Notes: generated by a model from the letters alone, not told the origin. A stretch of 64,000 bases of DNA from a virus (IMGVR_UViG_3300020460_001010:30641-94640); one strand, 5' to 3'. Shown: positions 1 through 52,838, counted from the first letter of the stretch. Translations and numbers: made by a program.

Positions 1-879
1 TTTAATGTTGCTCCTGAAGCAAAGTCTTTGACATCTTCTGGATTGAAAATAGTGAATAGTGATAGTTCGTTTGAACATTTGCTTAAGAAAGCAGGTCATA
101 GTTTGGACTTGGGTTCATTGGATGACGAGGTGTTTAATCAAATTACAAGTGATGACCCAAACTCAATTCGTTCCAAGGCAAAGCAAATAATGTTACAACA
201 ATTTGCTCATTACAAAAACGGAAGACTTGGTGTTATTATTGACGGAACGGGTGATGACTATGCTAAAATATCCAAGCAAAAGAAAGAGTTGGAAAAACTT
301 GGTTATGATTGCTATATGGTGTTTGTTAATACTTCACTTGAAGTTGCTCAACAAAGAAACGCATTTCGTGCAAGAAAACTTCCAAGGAAATTAGTGAAAG
401 CAGTTTGGACTGACGTGCAAAAAAACATGGGAAGATTCCAAAGTGCATTCAAGCAAAATTTCACCATCATAGATAATTCAGAAGATTTAAGAAGTAAGAC
501 AAAACCAGGAAAACTTGATCTTGCTCCTTTTATATTAAAAGCAACTGCAAAGTTTGTTGCAAAACCAATTCGCAATCCAATTGGAAAAGAGTGGATTAGT
601 TTGATGATGAAACATGACAAGGTTACCAAAAGTGGTGATAAACGCAACAGACTTCGTGAAGACGAAGATACCGAGAGTGAAACAGACCCATTGGAGGATG
701 TGACACTACCAATGGATCTGGAGAGATATTTGGGCAGAACTATCCACATCATAGAAAAGTTCGATTTGCAACCAAGAAAGAATCTTGCAGTTTTGTCGAG
801 GTTGGTTGATAGTTTAGAACTTAATAAAAATCAATTTATTAGATTTTTTAATAAAATAAAGGCAAGTAAGTTTGACTAA
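1..879 (+). CDS. P-loop kinase (AAA_33/zeta-toxin/PNK-kinase-like), 5' truncated by the window edge
   Basis: The frame is open from base 1. It has VNSD, a Walker-B-like GVIIDGTG and a lid motif VNTSLEVAQQRNAFRAR. Walker A is expected upstream of the window. A C-terminal extra module follows RLRE. Confidence 0.65.
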   Translation, partial: FNVAPEAKSLTSSGLKIVNSDSSFEHLLKKAGHSLDLGSLDDEVFNQITSDDPNSIRSKAKQIMLQQFAHYKNGRLGVIIDGTGDDYAKISKQKKELEKLGYDCYMVFVNTSLEVAQQRNAFRARKLPRKLVKAVWTDVQKNMGRFQSAFKQNFTIIDNSEDLRSKTKPGKLDLAPFILKATAKFVAKPIRNPIGKEWISLMMKHDKVTKSGDKRNRLREDEDTESETDPLEDVTLPMDLERYLGRTIHIIEKFDLQPRKNLAVLSRLVDSLELNKNQFIRFFNKIKASKFD

Positions 880-1247
880 TGGATCATGATGTTCGTATCG
901 ATACCAACCAATTGATTTCAGAATTGATTTCAGAATCTCTTGGGGACACCTGGAAACTTGAATTGGCTGCGACTGGAAAAAAATTCAGTTATGCTTCAAA
1001 GAGAGATGGTAATAGGTCGTGGGCAGACAAGATGGCAAAGAAACTTGTAAAAGATTCAATTGAGGATTATGAGTTTATAGGGATATTCAGTGAGGGTGAG
1101 TCCTCCGAGGGTCCCATACTCACGGGTGTCGTTTATCATTGTACTGAATTTTACTTAAAAAAGTCACCATATATGTACTTTGAGAAAAAGGATGCGTGTA
1201 AAATTGTATTTAAAACAAAAAAACCAACTGAATATATAGAAGGGTAA
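879..1247 (+). CDS. hypothetical protein
   Basis: 122-aa ORF; its ATG overlaps the upstream TAA (TAATG). Confidence 0.7.
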   Translation: MDHDVRIDTNQLISELISESLGDTWKLELAATGKKFSYASKRDGNRSWADKMAKKLVKDSIEDYEFIGIFSEGESSEGPILTGVVYHCTEFYLKKSPYMYFEKKDACKIVFKTKKPTEYIEG

Positions 1248-1249
1248 TT

Positions 1250-1774
1250 ATGGGTATTGAAGAGTATAAGAGATATAAAGATGATCCGTTTTGGATGAAG
1301 TCAAAATACGATGGAGTTTCCGGTGAGCAAAGATTACCAGTTCAACGCAGATTGCGAAAGGGCGGTGTTAAGTTTAAGAAGGGTGATGAAATATTGTATT
1401 ACCCTAAAGGTAAAGTGATATTGGTTGGAAAAGACGCAGAGCAAGCATGGAGAGATTTCCAGGCAGCTGCCCAAGACGAAGATTTTTATATGTCTCAATA
1501 TGAGGAGTCGATAATGGAAAAACAAATACAAGAAAAATATGATAGTTCGGAATACAAGAAGGCAATCAAGTTTATGTCGGGATTGCATTCAAGTATCTTG
1601 AAGGCACGTGATAAAGTAATTCGTTGGTTAGAACGAAAAGGTTTTAACAAGATAGCAGATGATATTGATGATATGAATTCAAAGGAATGGAATGCCTTTT
1701 TGTCCAATAAAGTATATGAGCAGAAATTGCGAAATGAAATTCGGACCATGTTGACTGAACTACTAAATAAATGA
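1250..1774 (+). CDS. hypothetical protein (modular)
   Basis: 174-aa ORF packed between its neighbours; C-terminal helix QKLRNEIRTMLTELL. Confidence 0.7.
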   Translation: MGIEEYKRYKDDPFWMKSKYDGVSGEQRLPVQRRLRKGGVKFKKGDEILYYPKGKVILVGKDAEQAWRDFQAAAQDEDFYMSQYEESIMEKQIQEKYDSSEYKKAIKFMSGLHSSILKARDKVIRWLERKGFNKIADDIDDMNSKEWNAFLSNKVYEQKLRNEIRTMLTELLNK

Positions 1775-4293
1775 CAAAAAATCGGACAGACGCACTCACT
1801 TCTGATCTAACGGAGTATATGCTTGGTGATTTACTTGCCGAAGCACCCAAGATTACAAAGGTGATTGGAATATATCCTGGTAGATTTCAACCTGCTGGAT
1901 TGCACCACTATAAAACATATAAGTGGTTGGACAAACAATTTGACGAAGCATGGGTTGCGACTAGCAACAAAACAGATGCAACTAAAAGTCCATTGAATTT
2001 TAAAGAAAAGGAAATGATATGGACAAAGCATAAAGTAAAGAATGTTGTTCAAGTTAAGAATCCGTATGTGTGTGAAGAATTATTAAAAAAGTATGACCCG
2101 AACAAAACTGCGGTGGTTTATATTTTTGGTGCTAAAGATGCAGGTAGATTGAAAACAAAAAAGGTGGACGGAACTCCTGGATACTATCAGTCGTATGCAA
2201 AGAACAAAAACAATTTAGAACCATATGCCAAACACGGATATTTTATTGTTGCTCCTCATGTGAGCATCAAGGTTCTTGGAAAGGAAGTAAACGGAACATA
2301 TATTCGTGAACTTCTTGGTAGTCCAAAGTATACAGATGCACAAAGAGTAGAAGCATTTGAGCAATTGTTTGGTTGGTATGACGAAAAGATTTATGTGTAT
2401 TTGAAAAAGAAGTTTAGTACTTTGTTTGAAAACGAAGAAATTTTTGAGGGATTTCTTCGTGAATATCCTGGAATTGAAACTTTCGTAAATACCCTACCCA
2501 GAGATATATTGGAACTTAGTAGTGTTTCTGGATTGGGAAAGACGATGGTCGATGATGGACCTACTGGATATTTTCCAGGAGACGCATATGAAACTCATAC
2601 CAAAGGTCGTGCGGAGATGCTTGGGTATGAAGTATTGGATTATGTGGTTGGGAAGAATTCTACATCACGGAATTCTGATTATAGAATGTGGGGGGATTAT
2701 TCTGGTCCCGTACCAAGTGTTTCATTTTTTCCATCTGGGGACATTGATGAGAAGACACCAACCAATCAAATAGAATTCGAAAATTCAAAGAAGGCATATG
2801 CCACTTGGGAAAACTTCATAAAATCATCCGCAGAGGTAGTCGGATTTAAGATTGTGGATTTTCTTGGTGCGGATATGTCCATCCGCAAACGTGACGAGCA
2901 GGGTGATGAGGATATGGAATCCAAGTTTGTTATTGATGCCGAAGAGTCGGAAGATGCTGACGAGATTGAATCAGGTGTCGAGGGTCAACTGGTAAGTGAA
3001 AGTAAACTTATAACAGAGGGTGGAGCTGCGGGTCATATGAGCCATCCATTTGATGATAGGGAATTAACGTTTGCAGACCTCAAGGAAATGATTCGTAGAT
3101 CTTTATCAGGTGAACTAAATGTTGAGAAGGAAGTCACGGAAAAACTTGATGGACAAAACCTAATGTTCAGTTGGAAAGACGGAAAACTAATATCGGCAAG
3201 AAACAAAGGTCATCTTAAGAATGCAGGCGCAGCTGCTCCAGATGTTGCCGGTATTGAAGAAATGTTTTCGGAAAAACCAGAAAATATCCGTGACGCATTC
3301 GTGGCCGCAGTCAAGGATTTGTCTACGGCAATATCCAAGTTAAGTGATGCTCAGAAGAATAAGGTGTTTAAGGAAGGTGAACGATTTATGAACATCGAGG
3401 TAATGACACCCGCAACACAGAATGTCATACCACAGAACAAAGATATGTTGGTATTCCACGGAACACAGGCATACGATTCGGCCGGATTGCCAGTATCAGT
3501 AGATTCTGATGGGAATGATATAACTGGTGAACTTAAAGGTTCTGCGAAAATGTTGGAGGGAATGCTTCGACAAATCAATGCTAATATTCAAAGTCGGTAT
3601 TCGTTAAATGCACCGATTGTTGTGGAATTGCCTAAAAGCAAATCTTTCGGTGAATCCCTCGCAAAGTATTCTGCTATGATAGATAAACTTAAAAAAGAAT
3701 TTAATTTAAAAAATAACGATAAGATAATGAAGTATCATGATGCATGGTGGAGAAATCTTTTGAATAAACAACAAGCACAAAAGAAAGAAGTATTTCCGTC
3801 AAACGTATATGAAGCACTGATAGGTAGGTGGGCATATAACGACAAATCAAACAAGATTACAACGATACGTATGGATCTGTCCAAGCAACCCAAACTACTT
3901 GCGTGGGTAAACAAATTTGAAAAAGAAGATATAGTAAAGCAGTTTGAAAAGAATATGTGGCCATTTCAATTCATCTTTTTGAAGTTGGGTGCAGAAGTGT
4001 TACAAAACGTAAAAGGATTTGTGGCAGCCGGTGGTTCTGACGATATTGCTAAAGCATTGGATACCCACATCAAAACTCTGGAGAAAAAGAAAATGAGCTC
4101 TGTGGAATCCACGGAGAAGTTTAAGAAAGACATGGAGAAGTTGAACAAGAATCTTGCTCGTTTGAATGCCATAGGAGGAACGGATGCGATTGCACCTTCG
4201 GAGGGAATTGTATTCCAATATAAAGGGGGTACATATAAATTGACAGGCACTTTCGCACCGATAAACCAAATTATGGGTATAATGAGGTTTTAA
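1771..4293 (+). CDS. fusion of an N-terminal HUP-fold (cytidylyltransferase-like) nucleotidyltransferase and a C-terminal ATP-dependent ligase-like NTase domain (DUF6267-like)
   Basis: N-terminal IYPGRFQPAGLHH (HIGH-like) and NPY. C-terminal GHMSHPFD, EKLDG (KxDG motif I, nt 3139-3153), ARNK, NIE, EGIVF (nt 4201-4215) and YKLTG. Confidence 0.65.
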   Translation: MTKNRTDALTSDLTEYMLGDLLAEAPKITKVIGIYPGRFQPAGLHHYKTYKWLDKQFDEAWVATSNKTDATKSPLNFKEKEMIWTKHKVKNVVQVKNPYVCEELLKKYDPNKTAVVYIFGAKDAGRLKTKKVDGTPGYYQSYAKNKNNLEPYAKHGYFIVAPHVSIKVLGKEVNGTYIRELLGSPKYTDAQRVEAFEQLFGWYDEKIYVYLKKKFSTLFENEEIFEGFLREYPGIETFVNTLPRDILELSSVSGLGKTMVDDGPTGYFPGDAYETHTKGRAEMLGYEVLDYVVGKNSTSRNSDYRMWGDYSGPVPSVSFFPSGDIDEKTPTNQIEFENSKKAYATWENFIKSSAEVVGFKIVDFLGADMSIRKRDEQGDEDMESKFVIDAEESEDADEIESGVEGQLVSESKLITEGGAAGHMSHPFDDRELTFADLKEMIRRSLSGELNVEKEVTEKLDGQNLMFSWKDGKLISARNKGHLKNAGAAAPDVAGIEEMFSEKPENIRDAFVAAVKDLSTAISKLSDAQKNKVFKEGERFMNIEVMTPATQNVIPQNKDMLVFHGTQAYDSAGLPVSVDSDGNDITGELKGSAKMLEGMLRQINANIQSRYSLNAPIVVELPKSKSFGESLAKYSAMIDKLKKEFNLKNNDKIMKYHDAWWRNLLNKQQAQKKEVFPSNVYEALIGRWAYNDKSNKITTIRMDLSKQPKLLAWVNKFEKEDIVKQFEKNMWPFQFIFLKLGAEVLQNVKGFVAAGGSDDIAKALDTHIKTLEKKKMSSVESTEKFKKDMEKLNKNLARLNAIGGTDAIAPSEGIVFQYKGGTYKLTGTFAPINQIMGIMRF

Positions 4294-40947: not shown

Positions 40948-43740
40948 ATGTCTTTTTTTGACAATAAATTAAATTCCATAAAGGATAAGGTTTCCGGTTT
41001 GTTTGATGGACTTTCTGACGAAAGTTCGGGTATGTCTAATCTTTTTGGAGGTGCATTTGGAGGATTCTCTGAGGCATTTGATGGGATCTACGATGCGGTA
41101 TCAGGAGTATTCAAACCTCAGTTTGAAACCATGGCCGAGGCAGAAGATGCATTGTTTAATGAACAACCAAAACCTCCCGCACCAGGTAGTATTTATGAGT
41201 CCAGTGTACAGGATGCGAAATCTCATTCGAGTTATGGAGATGTGTTGATGGTTCGTAGTTTTGTGAGAAATGAACTTGCAAATCGTGAACGAGATTTTGG
41301 ATTGTACTATACAAGTAATGGGGAATCTGCCGAGGGAGTACCGGATAATCCAAACGACCCATATACAGGAGAGATGTATCGTGGGCCAAGAAGTGCTTGG
41401 GTTCGGATATGTTCAAATTCACTATATCAACCCGAGGGGTCTTCGGATAAATATACTGGATTTGTTATGCATGGTGTAAATGATTTCAAAGATATATATG
41501 GATTCTCCGAAGATTCTACAAGAGAGTCAAGTTCGAATGTCATTGGATATGATGTATTTGGAAAACCGCATACGGTAAAGGAGAAAATGTTTCACCACCG
41601 ACCATGCCCAGGAATTACAGGAATTGATTCAAAGGTTGTGGACAATATGCAAAATGGGAGAGAGAGTACTATTAAATTAACTTGTTGGAGCAGGTCTCAA
41701 TTGGACTATCTCCAACCTTATTTTTTTAATCCAGGGATATCAATTGTATTGGAGTGGGGGTGGAACACATTTCCAAGAGATGCGTTGATAGATTTGAAGG
41801 ATGAGGGATCCAGTCAAGATGCGGCTGATTGGTCAAGTGCATTTGATATGTGGGATGATGATGTGGCATCTTCTGGTTTAGTGGGTTTACACTACGATGT
41901 ACAATATGCAAATAAACATATAATGCGTGGTCGTGGAAACTATATGTTTTTAATTGGGATGATAACTAACTTTGATTATTCGATTCGTGATGATGGTGGG
42001 TATGATTGTTCTATTGAGATTAAAAATGTCGGTTCTCTTGCACATGAACAAAAAACTAAGAATGGTAAGAAAACTTGTGGCACTGAATTGACGGAGGACG
42101 AGGAAGAGGACGTGACCGAGGACGAAGAAACCAGAACACAGGACTTTGAGGATTTTGTTAACAAACATTTAACCGACTACCTTGATGAGTCTGATGATAC
42201 GAAGGGTGTTGATGTGACTTTTGATGCTCATCCGTTTGGTAAAGACGATGGTGTTTATATGGACAAAGTAACAAAGGGACAATTTACACGTGGAAGATAT
42301 TTTACACCCGACCCCTTTAACGCAAAGTCAAGTTATGAACTTGGGTTTAGTGAAACCAGTTATTATATTACATTCGGACTTTTTGTGGATTTTGTTAATG
42401 AGTTTTATGGGAAAACTGCATTAACTAAAAACGGTTCAAATGCAACATTATTTAAATTTACATGTGAAAGAACCCGTTGTGCAGCTCACCCGAATATTAA
42501 ATCTTTAAATGGTGATGTTTTGTTGATACCAAATTCAACTGCACCACGCAGGAATGGTGGTCCCAGTACATCGGTTGACCGAGTTATATCTGCATCTACT
42601 AGAGGTGTATCTTCACAGGAACTTAAGATTGCTATGATGGCATCTGCATCAACTGGGGGGAAGAAAGCAGACGATTTGGCAACTGCATTAAAATTATCAC
42701 CACGTGATGATTTGTTTGAAATTTTGGCAAATAAGGCAATTCGTACAGGAAATCAAAGACAAATTCGTGAATATGTCAAGGATCAGAAAACTGGAACCTT
42801 GAAAAAGGAATGGATAACGGAACAGGCAGTAAAACCATTTCCAGATTATGTGGAGGGGTCGGGGGGATATTCCGGAAGACTCAAAGATTTATTTATCAAT
42901 GTTGAAATTATTAAAGATGCGGTCTCCAAGTCGGTGGATGTTAAGGGATTTATGACCGACGTATTGAACAAAATGTCGGAGGCATCCGGTGGGTTGTGGA
43001 GTTTTAATTTGGGTGCGGAGGACAAGTCTGTACCGAATTGTCCGGTTATGGCAATTGTGGATAGAAATTATTCAGGACTAGGTTCAACCGACGAACGTCA
43101 GAGGAGTGGTGAGATATATACGTTCAACTCCCATGTAAAAAACAGCATTGTTCAGGGAATGTCATTATCGGTAGAATTGTCAGGAGAGGTTGCAACCGAA
43201 GTAATGGGTTCTGCAAATGCCAAGGATTCGAGTAAGGAGACACGGGCATTCCAACCACTTTCGGAGGACCGAATAATAAACAAAATGCTTCCAAATGAGT
43301 GTGGGGATTCTACATCTGCCAAAAAAGCAGAGGACAAGGATGACATTGATGATCCTGAACGATATATAGTTTTTAAGAAAATAGAGGTTCAAGTCGAGAA
43401 AGGTCTTTTCGAGTGGGATGGTGTTGATACAAATGAAATAAAGATTGAAATGGTGGACACCAATAGACCACGGGCAATGAAGTCAATGAGGAATGACCAA
43501 AATCCACAGAATAATGTGAACTATAATGGACCAGTTAATCCGATAAAACTTGAGATTACATTGATGGGAATTGCTGGGTTTCGTGTTATGGAGGCGTTTA
43601 ATTGCACTGGAATACCAACATTATATTTTACAAGAGGGCATTTTACGATAATAGGAATTACGGATTCCATATCAAACAACAGTTGGACAACAACAATTGA
43701 GGGAACATATGTTACAAATTCCAACGAGATAAAGAAGTGA
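40948..43740 (+). CDS. putative baseplate hub protein
   Basis: Follows the LysM gene; PGITGI, LEWGW, ITNFDYS...GGYDC and C-terminal LEITLMGIAG...WTTTIEG. Confidence 0.55.
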   Translation: MSFFDNKLNSIKDKVSGLFDGLSDESSGMSNLFGGAFGGFSEAFDGIYDAVSGVFKPQFETMAEAEDALFNEQPKPPAPGSIYESSVQDAKSHSSYGDVLMVRSFVRNELANRERDFGLYYTSNGESAEGVPDNPNDPYTGEMYRGPRSAWVRICSNSLYQPEGSSDKYTGFVMHGVNDFKDIYGFSEDSTRESSSNVIGYDVFGKPHTVKEKMFHHRPCPGITGIDSKVVDNMQNGRESTIKLTCWSRSQLDYLQPYFFNPGISIVLEWGWNTFPRDALIDLKDEGSSQDAADWSSAFDMWDDDVASSGLVGLHYDVQYANKHIMRGRGNYMFLIGMITNFDYSIRDDGGYDCSIEIKNVGSLAHEQKTKNGKKTCGTELTEDEEEDVTEDEETRTQDFEDFVNKHLTDYLDESDDTKGVDVTFDAHPFGKDDGVYMDKVTKGQFTRGRYFTPDPFNAKSSYELGFSETSYYITFGLFVDFVNEFYGKTALTKNGSNATLFKFTCERTRCAAHPNIKSLNGDVLLIPNSTAPRRNGGPSTSVDRVISASTRGVSSQELKIAMMASASTGGKKADDLATALKLSPRDDLFEILANKAIRTGNQRQIREYVKDQKTGTLKKEWITEQAVKPFPDYVEGSGGYSGRLKDLFINVEIIKDAVSKSVDVKGFMTDVLNKMSEASGGLWSFNLGAEDKSVPNCPVMAIVDRNYSGLGSTDERQRSGEIYTFNSHVKNSIVQGMSLSVELSGEVATEVMGSANAKDSSKETRAFQPLSEDRIINKMLPNECGDSTSAKKAEDKDDIDDPERYIVFKKIEVQVEKGLFEWDGVDTNEIKIEMVDTNRPRAMKSMRNDQNPQNNVNYNGPVNPIKLEITLMGIAGFRVMEAFNCTGIPTLYFTRGHFTIIGITDSISNNSWTTTIEGTYVTNSNEIKK

Positions 43741-43747
43741 TATAGGT

Positions 43748-44158
43748 ATGAGTGAGTTTGACGATATTGATGTGTATAAAGTTTTGTCCCGACAAGATAC
43801 TTCTTTTTATTCCGACCACCCCAAACCACATTTTCCAAAACCAGATGACTCGGAATACGCATCTGGATATGTTAGACGGTACTTTTCCCGCAAGACAAAT
43901 GATGAGAACGCACCCATTGTGGAAATAAGTGAACACACTGCATCGTTGTTTGTAGATAACCCGTTTTACATAATTGTTGGGATAACATGGAAAATTGCAG
44001 GACAAATGAACACGGTGAACCTCGGTGGTGTTGAGTATGAGGAGGGGGTTGCGGAATATAACCATCGTGCGGTAACGAACGCAAATACCAAGATACCTGG
44101 ATTGCAGGACAAACTATCAGATGTATTTCAGTTTTATAGAAGTCAAAAGAGAAGTTGA
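43748..44158 (+). CDS. hypothetical protein (end of baseplate module)
   Basis: 136 aa; PKPDDSEYASGYVRRYF and WKIAG. Confidence 0.7.
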   Translation: MSEFDDIDVYKVLSRQDTSFYSDHPKPHFPKPDDSEYASGYVRRYFSRKTNDENAPIVEISEHTASLFVDNPFYIIVGITWKIAGQMNTVNLGGVEYEEGVAEYNHRAVTNANTKIPGLQDKLSDVFQFYRSQKRS

Positions 44159-44183
44159 CAAATTGAAGTTGCTGATGTAATAT
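44155..44183 (+). promoter_or_regulatory. sigma70-type promoter (leaderless geometry)
   Basis: TTGACA (44155-60), N17, TAATAT (44178-83); ATG at 44190 with no SD sequence. Confidence 0.65.
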
Positions 44184-44189
44184 TACTAA

Positions 44190-45485
44190 ATGCGATTTGT
44201 TGAAACTGGAAAGGATGTTGGTGTGTTGTTTGATGCCCTGTCCACCGGGGAGTGCTTTATGTACATATGGTATCGGCACGGATTACATCCCACAAAAGAT
44301 GAACCATTTGTGTTGATGATACACCATTATGGAACTGATGAGATATATGTGGTTTCATTTTCACATCCAGATTGTATTTCCACAGAACCGAGGGTGCTAC
44401 AACTAATTGCAAATACGGAATGTAGGAAATATGTGCTAGACCGAAAGAATATGTTGTATTTTGTTGATATGAAGAATTGTGTGGATATCGGTTTGGATGT
44501 ATATGCCAAAACGTTAACTCAAATTGAGTTTGATAAATTTCGGTGTAATGATATTAGATCTATACCAATAATGCATATGATAAAAAGTTTCAAGGATATT
44601 TCCAATAGTATACACCCACATATAAATACCGTGGACGAGAATATGACCAAATATGAGTCGGAGTTTTCATATGTTTTGAAGGATATTGAGGAGTCGGGTA
44701 TTTATGTGAATAATTTTAATTTAGGAGATTCATCATTGGTGGATGAATCTAATTTGGTATATAGTCAATATAATATGAAAACACCCACCGGCCGACCGAG
44801 TAATAGATTTGGTGGAGTTAATTACGCTGCATTGAATAAAAAGACCGGTGACAGAGATTGTTTCGTAAGTCGGTATGGAAAAGACGGAGCAATCGTTATG
44901 ATGGATTACGAAAGTTATCACCTTCGTTTGTTTGGCAATCACGTGGAGTTTGATTTACCCAACGAATCTTTACATGGATATTTAGGAAAATTGTATCACG
45001 GAAAAGAAGAACTAACTGAAGAAGAATATGATTTATCCAAGAAGATTACTTTTAATTTGATTTACGGAGGAATAACCGATGATGTGCGTGACAATGTTCC
45101 GTTCATGGCAAGAATTGCAGATTTCGTAGACGAAACATGGAACTTCTATAAACAAAATGGATATGTTGAAACTTGGTTTTACAAAAGAAAATTAAAGTCT
45201 TCAATTTTTAATGACAAAACAAACTCGTACAAAGTTTTCAATTATCTACTACAATCTGCCGAAACTGAACGAAATTGTGGAATAATGCGTAAAGTTCTCG
45301 ATTATATACACGGAAAACGAATAAAGTTTTTCCTATACACATACGATGCATTTTTATTTGATATCCAACGGGAGGAGTTCGGTGAGGTGAAGAATCTTGC
45401 CGAGATAATGGATGATGGTGGAAAGTATCCAGTTCGGGTTGAAGTGGGTGGAAACTATGGAGATTTGCGTGAAGTGACCTTTTAG
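44190..45485 (+). CDS. short family-A DNA polymerase-like protein
   Basis: TPTGRPS, motif A MDYESYHLR, motif B SKKITFNLIYG, NYLLQS and motif C YTYDAFLF. Confidence 0.8.
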   Translation: MRFVETGKDVGVLFDALSTGECFMYIWYRHGLHPTKDEPFVLMIHHYGTDEIYVVSFSHPDCISTEPRVLQLIANTECRKYVLDRKNMLYFVDMKNCVDIGLDVYAKTLTQIEFDKFRCNDIRSIPIMHMIKSFKDISNSIHPHINTVDENMTKYESEFSYVLKDIEESGIYVNNFNLGDSSLVDESNLVYSQYNMKTPTGRPSNRFGGVNYAALNKKTGDRDCFVSRYGKDGAIVMMDYESYHLRLFGNHVEFDLPNESLHGYLGKLYHGKEELTEEEYDLSKKITFNLIYGGITDDVRDNVPFMARIADFVDETWNFYKQNGYVETWFYKRKLKSSIFNDKTNSYKVFNYLLQSAETERNCGIMRKVLDYIHGKRIKFFLYTYDAFLFDIQREEFGEVKNLAEIMDDGGKYPVRVEVGGNYGDLREVTF

Positions 45486-45525
45486 TAAAATTGTTGTATA
45501 TTTATTAGTAATAATAGGTTACAAT

Positions 45526-45921
45526 ATGAATACACAATTACTATGTACTTTCAGTACCGTAGATGGGTACAATGACGATGTTGATGCGATAGTTAAGTTT
45601 TATAGTGTGTTGTTTGGAAAGGTCTATGTATTGCAAAATGAAGATAATTTGAACAATTTAATGTTGACTTACAACATTAATCCGAATAGTTTAAGTGTAA
45701 ACAGATATTACGCAAATACAATAAGTGTACATCGCAAAAAAGATTCCAATACAATATACACGATAAATTCATTGAACGCATTGATAAAAGATTTAAATGG
45801 AGGAGTCCTCGACCGTAATTTTTCAGTGGACTGGAATCAATACCGAAATATCATTTTGTTAACTGATGAGTCTTCGTATAAGAAGATTCCAACAAAATTG
45901 TATAAAATAATTAATATTTAA
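45526..45921 (+). CDS. hypothetical protein
   Basis: 131 aa; HRKKDSNTIYTINSLN. Confidence 0.75.
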   Translation: MNTQLLCTFSTVDGYNDDVDAIVKFYSVLFGKVYVLQNEDNLNNLMLTYNINPNSLSVNRYYANTISVHRKKDSNTIYTINSLNALIKDLNGGVLDRNFSVDWNQYRNIILLTDESSYKKIPTKLYKIINI

Positions 45922-45944
45922 AACTATGAACTCAATTAAATAGG

Positions 45945-45973
45945 TTGACGTATTTAATAAAAAACAATAAGGT
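45945..45973 (+). promoter_or_regulatory. possible sigma70-type promoter of the prkA operon
   Basis: TTGACG, N17, TAAGGT. Confidence 0.45.
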
Positions 45974-45982
45974 TATAAACAT

Positions 45983-48085
45983 ATGGAAAATAAAAAAGAA
46001 TCTTCAAAAAACAAGTCGGATAAATCTAATAGTTTATCATCCATTATTAAACGGGAGAACAATGAGGCAGTTTCCGACTATCGTGTACAAAATTGGACAG
46101 GTACATTTTGGGAGTACCTTGAACTTGTGGAGGACAATCCGAAGATTGTTCGGAACGCATATCAACGTTTGTTTGATATGGTAACTTCACATGGAATTGA
46201 GGAAATTGAATATTGCAAGAGAAAGTATGTAAAGTATAATTTTTTCAAAGATCGGGGTGACATCTCCATTTATGGGTTAGAAGAAAATCTAATGGAACTG
46301 ATGGATACACTCAAAAGTGCAAGTAGACATTATGGACCCGAACGACGTGTATTGCTTCTACACGGTCCTGTGGGAAGTAGTAAGTCAACCATCGTCACGG
46401 CATTGAAGAAAGGACTTGAGGAATATTCACAAACCAACGAGGGTGCGTTGTATAGTTTTAGTTGGAAGGTTGTTGATAGTGAGGGTAATGAGCAAATCGT
46501 ACCCTGTCCCATGAATGAAGAACCATTGAAGTTGCTACCAGATGACGTTAGGTCGGAGATTATAGGCAAATTGAATGCTTCTATAAAAGAGTCAGACTAT
46601 CAAATTAGATTGGATGGTTCGTTGAATCCTGTAAATGAGTTTTACTATAAGAAGTTGATGGAGCAGTATGGTGGGGATTATCGCAAGGTTCTGGACCATG
46701 TAGTGGTTCGTAGAGTTATAGTATCCGAAAAGAATCGGGTGGGTATTGGAACTTTTCAACCCAAAGACGAGAAGTCTCAAGACGCAACTGAACTTACAGG
46801 TGACATCAACTACCGCAAGTTGGCAGAGTACGGAAGTGAAAGTGACCCACGGGCGTTTGACTTTGACGGAGAGTTTTTGGTATCAAATCGTGGACTCATT
46901 GAGTTTCAAGAAATCCTTAAGTTGCAGACCGAATTCTTGTATGACCTACTTGGTGCAACCCAAGAGCATCGTGTTAAACCACGTCGTTTCAACCAAGTAC
47001 CTATTGACGAAGTTATTCTTGGACATACGAATAATGCTGAATTTGAAAAGTTGAAGAACAACAAGTTCATGGAAGCATTGCGTGATAGAACCATCAAGGT
47101 GGACATTCCATATTTGCTGAAGATTTCAGAAGAACAAAAGATTTATGATCACTTCTATAACAACAAGTCGGTCAACAAGCACATTGCACCACACACTACG
47201 TATTTGGCTGCATTGTTCTCTGTTGTAAGTCGTTTGGAAGAAAGTTCCAAACACGACATGAGCATCATTCAAAAGGCAAAACTTTACAATGGTCAGAGTG
47301 TTCATGGATTTACTGACGAACACGTCAAGGAAATGCAAGAAGAGTCACCAAACGAAGGATTGTATGGTGGAGTTTCTGCACGATTCATACAGAACCAGTT
47401 TTCCAATGCAATCGTTAATCCAAGAATGGGTGCAAAGAGTTTGAATCCGTTTATGTTGTTTGCACAAATCCGTGAAGGATTGAAAAGTTATAGTGGATTT
47501 CAAAGTGAAGACCAAAAGAAGACCATGATGGAACGTCTTGAACTTGTAGAAAAGGAATACGATAGAATTGTGAAACGAGAAGTACAACAAGCACTTAGTA
47601 GCAGTGAAGAAGCAATAAAGGCACTCTGCACAAACTACATTGATAACATCGTGGCATACATTCAAGACGAAAAGGTTAAGAACCCCGTCACCGGTAAGGA
47701 TGAGCAAGCAAACGAACAACTTATGCGTAGCATTGAAGAAAAGATTGGAATCTCCGAAGGAATGAAGGATGATTTCCGCAGAGAAATCATGAACTACATG
47801 GGTGGCCTTGCCGCCAAGGGCAAAGAGTTTAAGTATGATTCCAACGAGCAACTTTACAAGGCACTTGAAAAGAAGTTGTTTGAAGATACCAAGGATAGCA
47901 TCAAGTTGTCTGCTCTTGCTCAAGATACCGCAACTGTTGTTGATAAGGAACTTCTTGAAAAGATTGATGCGTTGAAGCAACGTCTTATCACTTCGTTTGG
48001 ATACGATGAAGATAGTGCATCGGATGTTCTCACCTATGTAGGTAGTATTTTTGCCCGTGGTGACGTTGACGATGACGAAGATTAA
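45983..48085 (+). CDS. prkA: PrkA/YeaG family AAA+ serine protein kinase/ATPase
   Basis: RNAYQR, Walker A LLHGPVGSSKS, CPMNEEPL, PKDEKSQD, SESDPRAF, NRGLIEFQE, EALRDR and GVSARF. Confidence 0.93.
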   Translation: MENKKESSKNKSDKSNSLSSIIKRENNEAVSDYRVQNWTGTFWEYLELVEDNPKIVRNAYQRLFDMVTSHGIEEIEYCKRKYVKYNFFKDRGDISIYGLEENLMELMDTLKSASRHYGPERRVLLLHGPVGSSKSTIVTALKKGLEEYSQTNEGALYSFSWKVVDSEGNEQIVPCPMNEEPLKLLPDDVRSEIIGKLNASIKESDYQIRLDGSLNPVNEFYYKKLMEQYGGDYRKVLDHVVVRRVIVSEKNRVGIGTFQPKDEKSQDATELTGDINYRKLAEYGSESDPRAFDFDGEFLVSNRGLIEFQEILKLQTEFLYDLLGATQEHRVKPRRFNQVPIDEVILGHTNNAEFEKLKNNKFMEALRDRTIKVDIPYLLKISEEQKIYDHFYNNKSVNKHIAPHTTYLAALFSVVSRLEESSKHDMSIIQKAKLYNGQSVHGFTDEHVKEMQEESPNEGLYGGVSARFIQNQFSNAIVNPRMGAKSLNPFMLFAQIREGLKSYSGFQSEDQKKTMMERLELVEKEYDRIVKREVQQALSSSEEAIKALCTNYIDNIVAYIQDEKVKNPVTGKDEQANEQLMRSIEEKIGISEGMKDDFRREIMNYMGGLAAKGKEFKYDSNEQLYKALEKKLFEDTKDSIKLSALAQDTATVVDKELLEKIDALKQRLITSFGYDEDSASDVLTYVGSIFARGDVDDDED

Positions 48086-48106
48086 TAATCAACGGACATT
48101 CACAGT

Positions 48107-49255
48107 ATGCCATCACGCAGAGTCAGAGAAGACCACAAAGAATATAGAGACATCGTCAAAGGAAATGTTGACGAAAAACTCAAGAAGCACATAAAAGGTG
48201 GTCAACGAATAACACGAAGAGGAAAAGACTTTGTTGTTGTTCGTGTTCCACATGTAGAACTTCCAAGTTTTCGTTACGGAAAACCTTCCAATGGAGAGGG
48301 AGTCGGTAACGGAGAAGTTGGAGTGGGTGATGAAGTAGGTGATGGACCTCCACAGGATGGAAGTGGCAATGAACCTGGAGAGGGTGGAAGTGGTGATGGT
48401 GAACACGAAATAGATGTTGGAATTAGCATGGATGCGTATTTTGACATGATAGGTGATGAACTTAAGTTACCAAATCTACAACCAAAAGAAAATGGTGATT
48501 TGGTGAAGGAAAAGATTAAGTGGAATCGCATCGCAAAGGTAGGCAACAATAGTTTGCTTCACAAAAGACGAACACTCAAGAATGCGTTTAAACGGATCAT
48601 CTCCGTAGGTGAGTTTGATCCATTGGACGTATCCAATGTATATCCGATTAAGGAAGACAAAGAATTTAGAAGTTGGAGTTCGGTTGAAGTACCTGATACA
48701 AACGCTGCTATCTTTTTTGTTGCGGACATATCCGCAAGTATGGATACTGAAAAACGTTCGTTAATTCGTGAACTCTGTTGGTATTTGGAAAACTGGATTG
48801 AGAGATTCTACCAAGAGACCCAGAAGAAATATATAGTACATGATCATGTTGCACAAGAAGTAGACCAAGAGAAATTTTATAAATATAGGAGTGGGGGAGG
48901 AACGCAAATCAGCAGTGCGTTTGAACTTGTAAATGATGTTATAGAAAAGGCATTTCCTCTCAATGAATGGAATATCTATGTATTTTACTTGAGTGATGGA
49001 GAAAATTTTGGTGATGACAACGAACTCTGCGTGGAACATCTTAAGAAGATGCAAACTTATACCAACTTGATTGGGATTACGGAAGTCAAGGCAGTTCGTA
49101 GTTGGGCAACATTTTTACCTCACATTCGGAAACGGATTGAAGATAAGACATTAGATTTTAACAAGATTTCAACTGCATCTATGGAAAGTCAGAGTGATGT
49201 GCTAAAAACACTTCAGTCGTTACTAACACCTGAGGATGAAGAAGTACCTTTTTGA
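48107..49255 (+). CDS. yeaH: YeaH/YhbH (DUF444) vWA-domain protein
   Basis: Gly-rich linker, LKLPNL, MIDAS elements DISASM, SGGGTQIS and LSDGEN; WNIY. Confidence 0.9.
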   Translation: MPSRRVREDHKEYRDIVKGNVDEKLKKHIKGGQRITRRGKDFVVVRVPHVELPSFRYGKPSNGEGVGNGEVGVGDEVGDGPPQDGSGNEPGEGGSGDGEHEIDVGISMDAYFDMIGDELKLPNLQPKENGDLVKEKIKWNRIAKVGNNSLLHKRRTLKNAFKRIISVGEFDPLDVSNVYPIKEDKEFRSWSSVEVPDTNAAIFFVADISASMDTEKRSLIRELCWYLENWIERFYQETQKKYIVHDHVAQEVDQEKFYKYRSGGGTQISSAFELVNDVIEKAFPLNEWNIYVFYLSDGENFGDDNELCVEHLKKMQTYTNLIGITEVKAVRSWATFLPHIRKRIEDKTLDFNKISTASMESQSDVLKTLQSLLTPEDEEVPF

Positions 49256-49257
49256 AT

Positions 49258-50823
49258 ATGGGAATTGCGTGTGAAATTGATAGTCTGAACTATGGAGTTT
49301 GTCCAGAGTTGGCTGCCCTTATACCAGATGTACTGAAGGCGTGTTACGACAATGGACTTGATCCATATCCGTTGTGTATTGAAGAATTTGATGCAGACGA
49401 AATTGTAGAGATTGCGGCGTATGGTGGATTTCCTGTTCGTTATCCTCATTTTAATTTCGGACAACAATTTGAGCAGTTACATCATCAGTATCATTCTGGT
49501 ATGGGTAAGATTTACGAAATGGTTGTAAATACTGATCCAACTTATATGTACCTTCAACGAAACAATCCTATCGTTGATAATCTTACTGTTGTTGCACACG
49601 CAACTGCACATAGTGATTTCTTTAAGAACAACATTATGTTTAAGCATACGAATCGTAACATGATGAATGTGATGGCAAATCATAGTGATAAGATTCGTAT
49701 GTACATGGATCGTTTTGGTCGCAAAAAAGTGAAGGACTTTTTGAATGCAGCTCTTGCTATTGATAGTTTGATTGACCCTTCTTTGTGTTATCGTGAAAGT
49801 AATCTGAAAAAAGCATCCAAGTTTAATTTTGAAGACAGAAAACCAAGAGAGCACGTATCTCGGTTGAACACCAAGGAGTATATGGAGAAGTATGTTAATC
49901 CATCCCACTATATTGAGAAACAACGGAGGGAACGTGAAGAAAGACAAAAGTTAGCAGAAAATAAATTTCCTCTTAACCCAGAACGAGATATTATGTTGAT
50001 GATTATTAACCATGTTCGTCTTGAACCTTGGCAACAAAATATTCTTAGTATGATTCGTGATGAGTCTATTTACTATCGTCCACAGGGAATGACCAAGGTT
50101 CTCAATGAGGGTTGGGCAAGTTATTGGGACTCCTATATAATGGCAAGTTGCAACTTTGCAGGAGACGAAGGAATTTTTGATTATGCGAAGCACCACGCCG
50201 GAGTTCTCGGTGGTAAATATAACATGAACAATCCATATAAACTTGGAAACACTTTATTACGTGACATTGAAGACCGTTGGAATAAAGGCAAGTTTGGTAA
50301 AGAGTATGAAAATTGCGACAACGGAGAAGAAAAAAGATATTGGAATAAAAATCTTGGTCTTGGACGAGAGAAACTTTATGAGGTTCGTGAGAACTACAAC
50401 GATGTTACATTTTTAAATGAATTTTTTACCAAAGACTTTTGCGAAAAGCATAAATATTTCGAATATGCACTTGATAAGGATACCAATAAATATGTGGTGG
50501 TTAGCAAGGACTATAAGAAAATAAAAAGTAAACTTATAGACCGTCATGTTAATATGGGAATGCCTGTAATTTACATGGAGAACATGAAATACAAAAACAA
50601 TGAAATTTTACTTAGACATGAATTTGAAGGTAGACCCCTTGATGTAAAATACGCAACCGGAACAATGGCATATTTACATGAGATTATCAAAAAACCTATT
50701 AATATTTTGACCAGTGATGTTCTTGAGGAGGGATATGGTAGGGAGAAAGAAACGGTAGAAGTTGAGGTTAGGTATCGTTACAATAATGGTGAGATGAAAC
50801 GATACGAGGGTAGTAAAGTTTAA
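49258..50823 (+). CDS. spoVR: SpoVR/YcgB family protein
   Basis: GFPVRYPH, KIYEMVVNTDP, VAHATAHSDFFKNN, TKVLNEGWASYW and NPYKLG. An alternative TTG start lies at 49252. Confidence 0.92.
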   Translation: MGIACEIDSLNYGVCPELAALIPDVLKACYDNGLDPYPLCIEEFDADEIVEIAAYGGFPVRYPHFNFGQQFEQLHHQYHSGMGKIYEMVVNTDPTYMYLQRNNPIVDNLTVVAHATAHSDFFKNNIMFKHTNRNMMNVMANHSDKIRMYMDRFGRKKVKDFLNAALAIDSLIDPSLCYRESNLKKASKFNFEDRKPREHVSRLNTKEYMEKYVNPSHYIEKQRREREERQKLAENKFPLNPERDIMLMIINHVRLEPWQQNILSMIRDESIYYRPQGMTKVLNEGWASYWDSYIMASCNFAGDEGIFDYAKHHAGVLGGKYNMNNPYKLGNTLLRDIEDRWNKGKFGKEYENCDNGEEKRYWNKNLGLGREKLYEVRENYNDVTFLNEFFTKDFCEKHKYFEYALDKDTNKYVVVSKDYKKIKSKLIDRHVNMGMPVIYMENMKYKNNEILLRHEFEGRPLDVKYATGTMAYLHEIIKKPINILTSDVLEEGYGREKETVEVEVRYRYNNGEMKRYEGSKV

Positions 50824-50826
50824 CAA

Positions 50827-51609
50827 GTGTATTCAGAAAACGAAATATACTGCATGGACAACTTGAAGTTTCTATGCGAATTGGATTCTAATTATATCAA
50901 TTTGATTTATTGTGATATATTGTATGGAACTGGTAAGAAGTTTAAGGATTATGATGACCTTCCACCGGAAAAGAGTGTAATTGAAAATCACTACATTCCT
51001 CGTCTAAGGGAAATGCGTAGAGTGCTGACGGATACGGGAACGATCTGTTTGCAAATGGATTTGCGTATTGTTCATTGGATAAGAAATATAATGGACGATA
51101 TATTTGGTTATGAAAATTTTAGAAATCAAATCGTGGTAAAGTTTAATATTGGTGGTCGAGGTAAACGAGAGTTTGCAAAGAAACATGATTATATTATTGT
51201 CTATACCAAATCCGATGAGTTTGTATTCAATGACATGGACATCCGAGTACCATACAAGTCGGTTATCAGTAAGAAGCAAGATAGACCAAATATCACCGAA
51301 GAAAAATTAAAAATTGGGACGATACCTACAAATGTTTGGGATGACATTCCGTCTGGATTAAAAGTCAAGAAAGCAACTGACTATTATAGTGAAAAACATC
51401 CGAAGATTTTGGAAAGAATTATCAAGGCAAGCAGTAACGAAGGTGACTTGGTAGGTGACTTTTATTGCGGAAGTGGAACTACATTTGCGGTTGCCAAGTC
51501 GTTGAATCGTAGGTTCATCGGGTGCGATAAAAACGAGGATGCAGTACAAATTTCAAGGGACAGAATTAATGAGAAAATAAGTCAATTTTTTTCCTTGAAA
51601 ACTGCATAA
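50827..51609 (+). CDS. N4-C/N6-A DNA methyltransferase (beta class)
   Basis: LIYCDILY at the DPPY position, FRNQIV, TNVW, EKHPKILERII and SAM-binding DFYCGSGTT; GTG start. Confidence 0.85.
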   Translation: MYSENEIYCMDNLKFLCELDSNYINLIYCDILYGTGKKFKDYDDLPPEKSVIENHYIPRLREMRRVLTDTGTICLQMDLRIVHWIRNIMDDIFGYENFRNQIVVKFNIGGRGKREFAKKHDYIIVYTKSDEFVFNDMDIRVPYKSVISKKQDRPNITEEKLKIGTIPTNVWDDIPSGLKVKKATDYYSEKHPKILERIIKASSNEGDLVGDFYCGSGTTFAVAKSLNRRFIGCDKNEDAVQISRDRINEKISQFFSLKTA

Positions 51610-51691
51610 AATTGAGTTAAAATATATTTATATATGAGCATTAAAAACGTTAATGTTCATCACACACAAACACACACAAAGGAATAAAGAA

Positions 51692-51925
51692 ATGATTACT
51701 ACAACTAATCAAAACCCGAATGCATATGCTATTCGGTTGGAAGTACTAAAGAACGCAAAAGACCTAGTTTGGGATGCGTGGCACATGAAGAATAACGAGG
51801 CAGAACGAAATGCTGAAGCTCGTAACGAATCATACGAAATGCCCCCACAACCATCGACAAAGGATGTACTGGACACTGCGGCTCAATTGTACGACTTCGT
51901 GCAAAATCACGGAAAAAAATCTTAA
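51692..51925 (+). CDS. small hypothetical protein
   Basis: AAGGA upstream of ATG 51692; NAYAIRLEVLKNAKD...AAQLYDFV. Confidence 0.7.
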   Translation: MITTTNQNPNAYAIRLEVLKNAKDLVWDAWHMKNNEAERNAEARNESYEMPPQPSTKDVLDTAAQLYDFVQNHGKKS

Positions 51926-51942
51926 GAAAAATATGTTTCTTA

Positions 51943-51971
51943 TTGACGAAAGTCGAAACGAACCGTATTAT
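51943..51971 (+). promoter_or_regulatory. sigma70-type promoter upstream of ssb
   Basis: TTGACG, N17, TATTAT. Confidence 0.6.
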
Positions 51972-52013
51972 ATTAAGAATATTATTAACAAATAAAAACT
52001 AAAGGATTAAGAA

Positions 52014-52838
52014 ATGGCTATTGACCTAGACAAAATCAAAAGCAGACTTTCAAGTCTGTCTCAAAGTAATAACAGAACGAACTATCAATGGAAACCACAA
52101 CCTGGTAAACAACAAGTTCGTATCGTACCCTACAAGCATCAACCCGATAATCCGTTTATTGAGTTGTTTTTCCATTACGGAATCAACAATCGGACTTATC
52201 TTTCCCCTGTATCGTTTGGTCGTCCCGACCCTATTTGCGAATTTGCGGAAAAGTTGAAGCGAAGTGGAGACAAGGATGATTATCGTATGGGGCGTTCTCT
52301 TATGCCCAAGATGCGTACCTTCGTCCCTGTTATTGTCCGAGGTGAAGAAGCAGAAGGTGTTAAGTTCTGGGGATTCGGAAAGGAAGTTTATCAAGAACTT
52401 CTCGGTGTAATCGCAGATCCTGACTACGGAGATATTACTGACCCAGAAAATGGTCGTGATATTACCATTGAATTCCTTTCTGCCGAAGAAGCAGGTCGTT
52501 CGTTTCCGAAGACCAACATCCGTGTTAAACCAAACACGTCACCAATCTCGGAAAACAAAAACGTACTGGAGAGTGTTTCCAATTCACAAGCAGAGATTAC
52601 TGAAATCTATCAGGAACTTGGTTATGATGAACTAAAAGAAGCACTTGAAAAGTGGGTAAGTGGTGAGACGGAAGAAGCACCCCCCGCAGAATCCGAGACG
52701 GTTGCCAGTGTAACTAAGGTTGAATCTTCAGAAGCACAGGTCAAACAACCCGCAAGTGCCACATCTGAAAAGAGTGGTTTGAATGTTGCAGCTACGGAAG
52801 ACGTAGAGGCTGCATTTGAAGAGTTGTTTAAGTCTTGA
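52014..52838 (+). CDS. ssb: single-stranded DNA-binding protein (T4 gp32-like)
   Basis: VRIVP, NPFIELFFHY, DPICE, VKFWGFGK and DITDPENGRDI; acidic tail ending FEELFKS. Confidence 0.85.
   Translation: MAIDLDKIKSRLSSLSQSNNRTNYQWKPQPGKQQVRIVPYKHQPDNPFIELFFHYGINNRTYLSPVSFGRPDPICEFAEKLKRSGDKDDYRMGRSLMPKMRTFVPVIVRGEEAEGVKFWGFGKEVYQELLGVIADPDYGDITDPENGRDITIEFLSAEEAGRSFPKTNIRVKPNTSPISENKNVLESVSNSQAEITEIYQELGYDELKEALEKWVSGETEEAPPAESETVASVTKVESSEAQVKQPASATSEKSGLNVAATEDVEAAFEELFKS

Follow-up and report, generated by a model that had tools for sequence, protein, structure and literature searches.

The window analysed here is a 64,000-nucleotide stretch of viral DNA (IMGVR_UViG_3300020460_001010:30641-94640, positions counted from its first letter), in which three neighbouring genes encode relatives of the bacterial proteins PrkA/YeaG, YeaH/YhbH and SpoVR/YcgB. 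PrkA/YeaG-YeaH-SpoVR is among the most widespread bacterial gene sets without an agreed biochemical function, and a 2026 study ties YeaG to starvation-induced bulk proteolysis that decides survival and regrowth. What is added here is the trio as a mobile accessory cassette under core-gene-like constraint, sister phages that do without it, and a SpoVR protein that probably has a zincin fold. The phage trio is unstudied and has been made testable by work on SpdA, the YeaG of Escherichia coli; databases already contain it, and this window is not its only site.

The trio and its proteins

The three genes (Table 1) are co-linear on one strand in a single transcription-unit layout, the same as that of the cellular yeaG-yeaH-ycgB module. 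A gap of 21 nucleotides separates PrkA from the DUF444 (YeaH) gene, which overlaps SpoVR by 4 nucleotides, and all three open reading frames (ORFs) are intact. A preliminary description, made from the sequence, had reported three intact and tightly linked genes, and the ORF coordinates bear it out together with Pfam matches far above curated cut-offs; the motifs it quoted for all three proteins are found in the translated sequence. It had also placed the trio inside a replication module. Upstream there is a weak DNA_pol_A match, and downstream lie genes for a methylase, gp32, RecA, an exonuclease, DnaB and ribonucleotide reductase (RNR), in agreement with that placement. Its description of PrkA-YeaH-SpoVR as a conserved cellular module likewise holds, as the cellular yeaG-yeaH-ycgB genes show high cofitness in six bacteria and have been inferred to act in one pathway (10.1101/072470).

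The PrkA protein matches PF08298 (AAA_PrkA; E 7.6e-90, 302 bits, cut-off 25) and the C-terminal domain PF06798 (E 1.1e-71, 241.9 bits, cut-off 25). The solved structure of a 692-residue 'serine protein kinase' (9xip, 9xiq, 9xir) matches residues 27-692 of the phage protein (E 2.6e-215 for 9xip). The Walker A motif LLLHGPVGSSKST is present, and GPVGSSKS, with K134, lies inside a block conserved across viral and cellular groups; the NRGxxEFxE region, HTN and RDR are likewise kept in every phage and cellular group. In Bacillus subtilis PrkA, the Walker A lysine K108 is essential to ATPase activity and function; the protein binds and hydrolyses ATP via Walker A, and it showed slow casein degradation but no kinase activity (PMC9512850). 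Stringently purified Bacillus anthracis PrkA shows neither protease nor kinase activity, and PrkA has been classed as a clade III AAA+ protein with a pore loop, like YME1 (PMC13001217). In the kinase-like domain of PrkA, the P-loop is degenerate (PMC9512850, PMC13001217). Of the label 'AAA+ ATPase/kinase' first given to the phage protein, the former half stands, with the AAA+ ATPase domain and Walker A intact, and the latter is doubtful, the purified Bacillus proteins having shown no kinase activity (PMC9512850, PMC13001217).

YeaH matches PF04285 (E 7.6e-67, 226.6 bits, cut-off 27) and carries VADISASMD, GGGTQISS and LSDGEN. These hold a complete metal ion-dependent adhesion site (MIDAS), whose residues D207, S209, (S211), T266 and D297 are invariant or nearly so across 27 sequences. 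The AlphaFold model (predicted local distance difference test, pLDDT, 74) has a C-terminal vWA domain that Foldseek matches with E 7e-8 and probability 1.00 (314 matches at E <= 0.001), resembling, among others, those of Rpn10 and BatB. Residue conservation and fold match both agree with the vWA protein with full MIDAS described at the outset. Sequence comparison found no solved relative of either YeaH or SpoVR.

SpoVR matches PF04293 over profile positions 7-405 of 407 (E 6.8e-108, 361.4 bits, cut-off 27). It carries VVAHATAHSDFF, which contains HATAH, and NEGWASYW; in the family alignment H116, H120, N285, E286 and G287 are invariant. We take N285-E286-G287 (NEGWAS) to resemble the 'NEGFA' motif of M1 peptidases. 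The AlphaFold model is largely helical (pLDDT 76.9, predicted template modelling score 0.74). In a wide VIA-align search, which is independent of Foldseek, the top 50 matches to this model are nearly all zincin or gluzincin metallopeptidases, among them the DUF885 protein 3o0y (Z 10.8), M1 peptidases (up to 9.5, 4fgm) and thermolysin (7.6), with further matches to M32, M3, LasB, collagenases, ACE and MATCAP; the matches span residues ~5-405. SpoVR therefore probably has a zincin fold, as judged from the predicted model, and such a fold agrees with the invariant H116-x3-H120 and N285-E286-G287. A gluzincin-like ligand pattern minus the catalytic Glu had been proposed for SpoVR, and both the conserved residues and this fold match fit it. 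Rows for anthrax lethal factor in the Foldseek comparison of the SpoVR model (E 0.2-2, template modelling score ~0.12) were not accepted as evidence.

The ATPase motifs of PrkA, the MIDAS and the SpoVR motifs are retained in every phage group, very divergent copies from Thermus phages included.

Conservation in the carrier lineage

The window is the final 64 kilobases (kb) of a 94.6-kb IMG/VR record with a CheckV completeness of 47%. The carrier is an uncultured far-T4-like aquatic myovirus of about 200 kb. The sizeable genes of the record all lie on one strand and encode a T4-type large terminase (TerL) and portal, the major head protein, tail sheath, baseplate wedge, primase and an SbcC-like nuclease, in addition to gp32, RecA, a 5'-3' exonuclease, DnaB and RNR. 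The placement as a far-T4-like myovirus follows from the relatives of the head protein, found in Flavobacterium phage immuto (52%), a 484-kb metagenomic phage, Microcystis phage Mel-JY01 (48%) and Rhodothermus phage RM378 (37%). No match to PrkA was found in the nearest cultured relatives by major capsid protein (MCP), Flavobacterium phage immuto and Microcystis phage Mel-JY01.

A scan of IMG/VR gave 167 viral stretches with a PrkA relative, of which 80 loci were retrieved. Of these, about 35 come from the lineage of the window itself, which has no cultured or deposited member, and more than 30 independent contigs from different samples share the same junctions. The lineage keeps one gene order: a polA-like gene, the small gene o131, PrkA, DUF444, SpoVR, the methylase, o90, gp32, RecA, the exonuclease, DnaB and RNR. 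In these loci, identity to the window is 76-93% for the trio and drops to 28-74% for the neighbours o930, o136 and polA431. The methylase follows SpoVR in lineage loci that reach that far downstream (78-93% identity).

Ratios of nonsynonymous to synonymous substitution (dN/dS), estimated by the Nei-Gojobori method for twelve pairs, are 0.03-0.065 for PrkA, 0.00-0.076 for DUF444 and 0.01-0.07 for SpoVR. They equal those of gp32, RecA and DnaB, against 0.1-0.45 for the variable neighbours. Selection on the whole trio is thus as tight as on replication genes, which points to a benefit inside a single infection cycle. Since gene order is shared by more than 30 IMG/VR contigs, and since the ORFs are intact with dN/dS of 0.00-0.08, two objections that the preliminary description had raised against its own reading, a chimeric host fragment and genes in decay, are disposed of; the trio is phage-borne.

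An accessory cassette in a variable cargo slot

A scan with gp32 uncovered a large population of sister phages with the same backbone, in which gp32 is 56-62% and RecA ~60% identical and a homologue of o131 is present. In sister phages without the trio, this homologue (43-51% identity) adjoins gp32. The distance between o131 and gp32 is ~500 nucleotides in several of them, and the slot of others holds different cargo: a tryptophan halogenase, several 2-oxoglutarate-Fe(II) oxygenases, an Fpg-like glycosylase and DUF1599 proteins. Neither PrkA, DUF444, SpoVR nor the methylase lies between o131 and gp32 in any sister phage examined. A 276-kb sister record rated complete has no match to PF08298 or PF04293, in searches in which records of the window's lineage and of a second viral group (group B, below) were positive. 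No methylase counterpart is detectable in sister phages without the trio (a single match of 26%), and the gene travels with the trio in the window's lineage only.

Because sisters with the same backbone hold other cargo at this site, the trio and methylase are an accessory cassette in a variable cargo slot, fixed only in the window's lineage. The sisters without it are natural controls, so that natural pairs with and without the cassette exist. The gene o131, which has no Pfam, PHROG or Atlas match, was weighed as a possible fourth component but discarded, since sister phages without the trio also have a homologue, which makes it part of the backbone.

Table 1. Features of the trio locus and its surroundings. 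Coordinates refer to the window unless a locus is named.
Feature	Position	Strand	Remarks
PrkA/YeaG-family AAA+ ATPase, long form, 700 residues	45983-48085	+	PF08298 + PF06798
YeaH/YhbH (DUF444), C-terminal vWA domain with complete MIDAS, 382 residues	48107-49255	+	PF04285
SpoVR/YcgB, probable zincin-like fold, HxxxH + NEGWAS, no catalytic Glu, 523 residues	49252-50823	+	PF04293
N6/N4 DNA methyltransferase	50827-51609	+	PF01555; starts 3 nucleotides past SpoVR
o131-gp32 cargo slot	45921-52014; L214:2569-8812; L223:3940-8864		
o131, backbone gene, 131 residues	45526-45921	+	Probably first gene of the transcription unit
ATATTTAT box, promoter-like	45498-45505	+	28 nucleotides upstream of o131; common to structural genes
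TTGAC(G/T)-N17-TAAGGT box	45945-45973	+	Directly upstream of PrkA; weak sigma-70-like and/or Shine-Dalgarno
ATATTTAT copies on the + strand	7185, 11411, 16820, 19857, 23268, 25901, 26636, 26697, 28976, 38943, 45498, 51624, 60824	+	
Giant ORFs, 3196 and 2597 residues	29329-38919; L084:10009-17802		

Distribution in phages and cells

In the protein database, about 80 PrkA clusters lie at 72-94% identity to the window's protein, none of them named, all from metagenome contigs as long as 290 kb. Identity then drops sharply to 58% or less, where named cellular proteins begin. The best PrkA among one genome per species, in 185,579 species, is 53-57% identical, and the nearest cellular sources are Myxococcota (Haliangium, Kofleriaceae), Planctomycetota, Calditrichota and Bdellovibrionota. 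Compared as DNA with 50,697 phage records, the region gave no match; relatives emerge only by protein-level search.

The trees built for PrkA, SpoVR and DUF444 all recover lineage A, that of the window, as monophyletic (support 98-100), and likewise A together with viral group B (100); the sampled cellular copies fall on one side of a branch (99, 94, 73). For the window's lineage, these trees and the dN/dS values of 0.00-0.08 give the clade under purifying selection that the preliminary description proposed to look for. The PrkA tree holds a third, purely viral clade, C (support 100), which includes the deposited 595-kb phage LR756511. Its members are genuine huge phages; their T4-like head protein shares 35-36% identity with that of the window, and one of the genomes, complete at 572 kb, has terminal repeats. 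As A+B, C and the cellular clade form an unresolved three-way split in the PrkA tree, no claim is made on a donor or on a single viral origin.

In group B the PrkA of the trio is 74-78% identical to that of the window while the head protein is only 35% identical; the MCP gene lies ~10 kb upstream, and no gp32 match was found in these phages. The A and B trios would thus reflect exchange of a cassette between unrelated large phages and not shared descent.

Deposited carriers include the Thermus phages phiYS40, TMA, phiLo, MN1 and Lalka, the Ralstonia jumbo phage RsoM2USA (ORF30-29-28), and the huge metagenomic phages LR756511, LR745206, LR756502 and LR756504. The phiYS40 copies have been on record since 2006 under the annotations 'SpoVR' and 'serine kinase'; a homologue of DUF444 lies immediately upstream. 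In the Thermus copies PrkA is 30-33% and SpoVR 20-23% identical to the window's proteins, and the order is permuted (vWA-SpoVR-x-PrkA), beside TerL: the phiYS40 trio adjoins TerL, and in Lalka the vWA gene, a hypothetical protein and the AAA ATPase lie between portal/minor head genes and TerL. Thermus phage copies sit on very long branches, and the PrkA proteins of RsoM2USA and LR745206 group with enterobacterial-type YeaG. The nearest deposited record is LR756511, at 51% and 43% identity. All three proteins have PHROG families (phrog_22605, phrog_19072, phrog_35217).

Co-located PrkA, DUF444 and SpoVR genes, for which the preliminary description had proposed a search of viral databases, are thus found in many carriers, in IMG/VR and among deposited phages. 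That description knew of no characterised phage version, and this part stands; phage versions as such are not new, given the trios of phiYS40 and its relatives, RsoM2USA and huge phages and the existing PHROGs. The trio is of a kind already recorded, and the window is an uncultured, unstudied example. The RsoM2USA paper lists the trio genes only (PMC8504454). In a marine virome study, spoVR was the most abundant 'sporulation' auxiliary metabolic gene and was interpreted as spore-related (PMC8940887). Such genes in marine viromes probably serve protein turnover in large T4-like phages and are unrelated to spores. The YeaG/YeaH genes of Enterobacter phage LAU1 (MN688132.1, L167, bases 1-3308) were read as host flank and not as a phage trio; they are placed right at the end of a lambdoid prophage-type record, beside tail genes, and no SpoVR was found there.

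On the cellular side, a long-form subtype with PrkA of ~680-700 residues occurs in Myxococcota, Planctomycetota, Calditrichota and Bdellovibrionota, with the same families in the same order, prkA-yeaH-spoVR. This order is seen in 54 of the 80 cellular loci sampled. The window's module differs from the cellular one in its setting, a lytic-looking myovirus genome, in upstream boxes of its own, in the absence of an RpoS or sigma-54 context, and in the appended methylase.

Upstream boxes

Two boxes precede the trio. The first, ATATTTAT, occurs 21 times in the window against 5.7 expected, an enrichment of about four-fold. Its + strand copies stand 12-110 nucleotides upstream of mostly structural genes (terminase, sheath and others) and of o131, and the copy upstream of the o131 homologue is retained in 31 of 32 lineage loci. 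From its positions, ATATTTAT is a putative promoter; it may be a promoter (perhaps a late one) or leader element specific to the lineage. It corresponds to the T4 late promoter TATAAATA in reverse. The latter was also searched for and gave 12 matches, but the + strand copies are not upstream of genes. We do not call ATATTTAT a T4-type late promoter, because the gene-proximal motif on the + strand is ATATTTAT and not TATAAATA. Its association with structural genes would suggest late, bulk use of the trio more than an early takeover.

The second box consists of TTGACG at 45945-45950 followed after 17 nucleotides by TAAGGT, which matches the -10 consensus at three of six positions. The form TTGAC(G/T)-N17-TAAGGT before PrkA is kept in 32 of 32 lineage loci, and a consensus scan did not call it. 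Its 3' part may be the AAGGT Shine-Dalgarno sequence common to many genes of this phage. The candidate promoter initially assigned here is thus conserved as a box, but its promoter character is weakened by the poor -10 match, the negative scan and the overlap with a likely Shine-Dalgarno sequence.

A Shine-Dalgarno-like element, AAGGT(T), lies 8-11 nucleotides before many starts (for example 6513, 9497, 27750, 40948, 45526, 45983, 55216, 56714). This shared element argues for a host with Shine-Dalgarno-led initiation, which fits oddly with the Flavobacterium-phage-like head protein.

Proposed role of the phage module

The best current cellular phenotype of the module is YeaG-dependent bulk proteolysis in starvation, not signalling (PMC13684143). 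In starved E. coli, cytoplasmic proteins undergo a largely non-specific degradation that needs YeaG (SpdA) and yields amino acids and ATP (PMC13684143). We tentatively favour, at somewhat less than even confidence, a reading in which the trio is a functional, phage-owned module of the SpdA type for the turnover or remodelling of proteins, recycling the host proteome. The cassette would have arrived in the o131-gp32 slot and then been kept by strong purifying selection. PrkA would act as the ATP-driven AAA+ motor, YeaH as a vWA/MIDAS adaptor coupling the motor to a partner or to substrates, and SpoVR as their zincin-fold partner, which may be an unorthodox metallopeptidase or a pseudo-peptidase that binds substrates. 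Together the three proteins would start or perform a YeaG-type bulk turnover or remodelling of cytoplasmic proteins. The host proteome could thereby be converted to amino acids and energy during peak structural-protein synthesis in a nutrient-poor host, which would parallel the recycling of host DNA into nucleotides by phages.

Several points weigh against this reading. In E. coli, degradation has been shown to depend on YeaG, which does not make YeaG, YeaH or YcgB the protease (PMC13684143). Stringently purified B. anthracis PrkA did not reproduce the casein degradation seen for B. subtilis PrkA (PMC9512850), which may stem from a contaminant (PMC13001217). For SpoVR, the catalytic Glu of HExxH is absent family-wide (HATAH here, HVxGH in the consensus, with Glu at +1 in 0 of 25 sequences), and the His pair and the candidate Glu ligand are ~165 residues apart, unlike in classical gluzincins. 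The VIA-align Z values (6-10.8) are middling for a largely helical model, so the zincin fold is probable and not certain; Foldseek of the model against the PDB gave nothing at E <= 0.001, and a SpoVR sequence profile had no match among PDB sequences even at E 10. The nutrient-poor host is an assumption drawn from the aquatic, marine-like relatives of the phage, and the timing of trio expression is read from a motif. No functional study of any phage trio copy was found in the literature. The fold match of SpoVR makes a concrete, testable hypothesis, and the phage copies, being compact, self-contained and free of host regulation, are convenient for three-protein reconstitution.

A more specific version is possible but doubtful: a split FtsH-like machine, with an AAA+ unfoldase joined by a vWA/MIDAS coupler to an unorthodox zincin peptidase, would itself execute SpdA bulk proteolysis, and large aquatic phages would share the cassette in order to liquidate host proteins as a source of amino acids and energy. 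The likeness to AAA+ zinc metalloproteases of the FtsH/YME1 type lies in the clade III-like motor (PMC13001217) and the probable zincin-fold partner, and offers a plausible route by which an AAA+ protein without a protease site of its own could aid proteolysis. In contrast to FtsH/YME1, the motor and the zincin-like protein of the trio are separate polypeptides, bridged if at all by the vWA protein, SpoVR has no Glu in the place of that of HExxH, and no membrane anchor is seen. The resemblance concerns the working principle only and not membership, and the trio complex is putative. MoxR-vWA and other AAA+/vWA-MIDAS pairs, including the vWA domain of proteasomal Rpn10, share with the trio an AAA+ gene beside a vWA gene with intact MIDAS. 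By Pfam, however, PrkA is not a MoxR protein (PF08298), and it differs in its large kinase-like C-terminal domain and in a third, obligatory partner, SpoVR.

Alternative explanations

A takeover of host signalling, in which the trio as a (pseudo)kinase/ATPase reprogrammes the starvation, nitrogen or stationary-phase state of the host without bulk proteolysis, is unlikely. This was the main idea of the preliminary description; under it, a starved cell might be held metabolically active or its entry into dormancy blocked. E. coli YeaG was reported as a kinase in nitrogen starvation, as PMC9512850 and PMC13684143 cite; mutant phenotypes vary by species and are all tied to nitrogen or amino-acid use, from which a signalling pathway was inferred (10.1101/072470), and the PF06798 C-terminal domain is fully retained in the phage copy. 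Yet purified PrkA of B. subtilis and B. anthracis showed no kinase activity and its kinase-like P-loop is degenerate (PMC9512850, PMC13001217), and the strongest cellular phenotype is proteolysis (PMC13684143). Signalling would moreover need matching host targets, whereas near-identical trios occur in unrelated phage groups (PrkA 76%, MCP 35%), and the nearest cellular PrkA is only 57% identical.

We regard as quite unlikely a chaperone or assembly role directed at the phage's own proteins, by which the trio would mature, metallate or quality-control head, packaging or large virion proteins in the manner of MoxR-vWA systems. Genomic position lends it some weight: the ATATTTAT box upstream is common to structural genes, the Lalka and phiYS40 trios stand beside head/TerL genes, the MCP gene of group B is ~10 kb away, and the phage encodes giant virion-type proteins of 3196 and 2597 residues. 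However, sisters with the same backbone, the complete 276-kb record among them, manage without the trio, and because they have the same structural genes, the trio is not needed to assemble the window's virion type. The closeness of the phage proteins to cellular ones in every motif also argues for the cellular activity over a novel one peculiar to phages.

Counter-defence, with the module unfolding or degrading host defence proteins, is highly unlikely; the preliminary description had named the remodelling of defence proteins among possible purposes. The cassette does occupy a variable cargo slot, a typical site of host-interaction genes, and a DNA methyltransferase travels with it. Against this, the cellular module has no known link to defence, and dN/dS of ~0.05 and 76-93% identity are unlike arms-race genes. 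PrkA and DUF444 have no match among the defence families of PADLOC-DB, and SpoVR has only a chance-level one (E 0.007, to a restriction-enzyme model).

An artefact or passive passenger, that is a mis-assembled host fragment or a decaying, unexpressed acquisition, deserves next to no credence and is refuted to the extent that sequence can do so, in spite of the 'provirus' label that IMG/VR gives the record and several relatives. All 94.6 kb of the record look like phage, with the genes on a single strand; the junctions recur in more than 30 contigs from different samples with intact ORFs and dN/dS of 0.00-0.08, and one genome from each of 185,579 species gave no PrkA more than 57% identical.

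Other features of the record

The 'provirus' label is attached to the record and to several lineage relatives (G000, G008-G010). No host genes or integrase were seen in the examined parts of the records so labelled, and host-like cargo, the trio for instance, may explain the label. Neither tRNA genes nor any clue to the host were found in the window.

In the region 40948-45485, a DNA_pol_A match, which is weak, is found only in the 431-residue ORF at 44190-45485. This ORF and the preceding ones of 930 and 136 residues are the fastest-evolving neighbours of the trio (28-74% identity, dN/dS 0.1-0.45), and 40948-45485 may represent a split or highly divergent polymerase. The stretch of the giant 3196-residue ORF (Table 1) has a raised GC content of 0.42-0.45, a strong GC skew that reaches 0.42 and, in one bin, a negative AT skew, and so differs from the remainder of the window.

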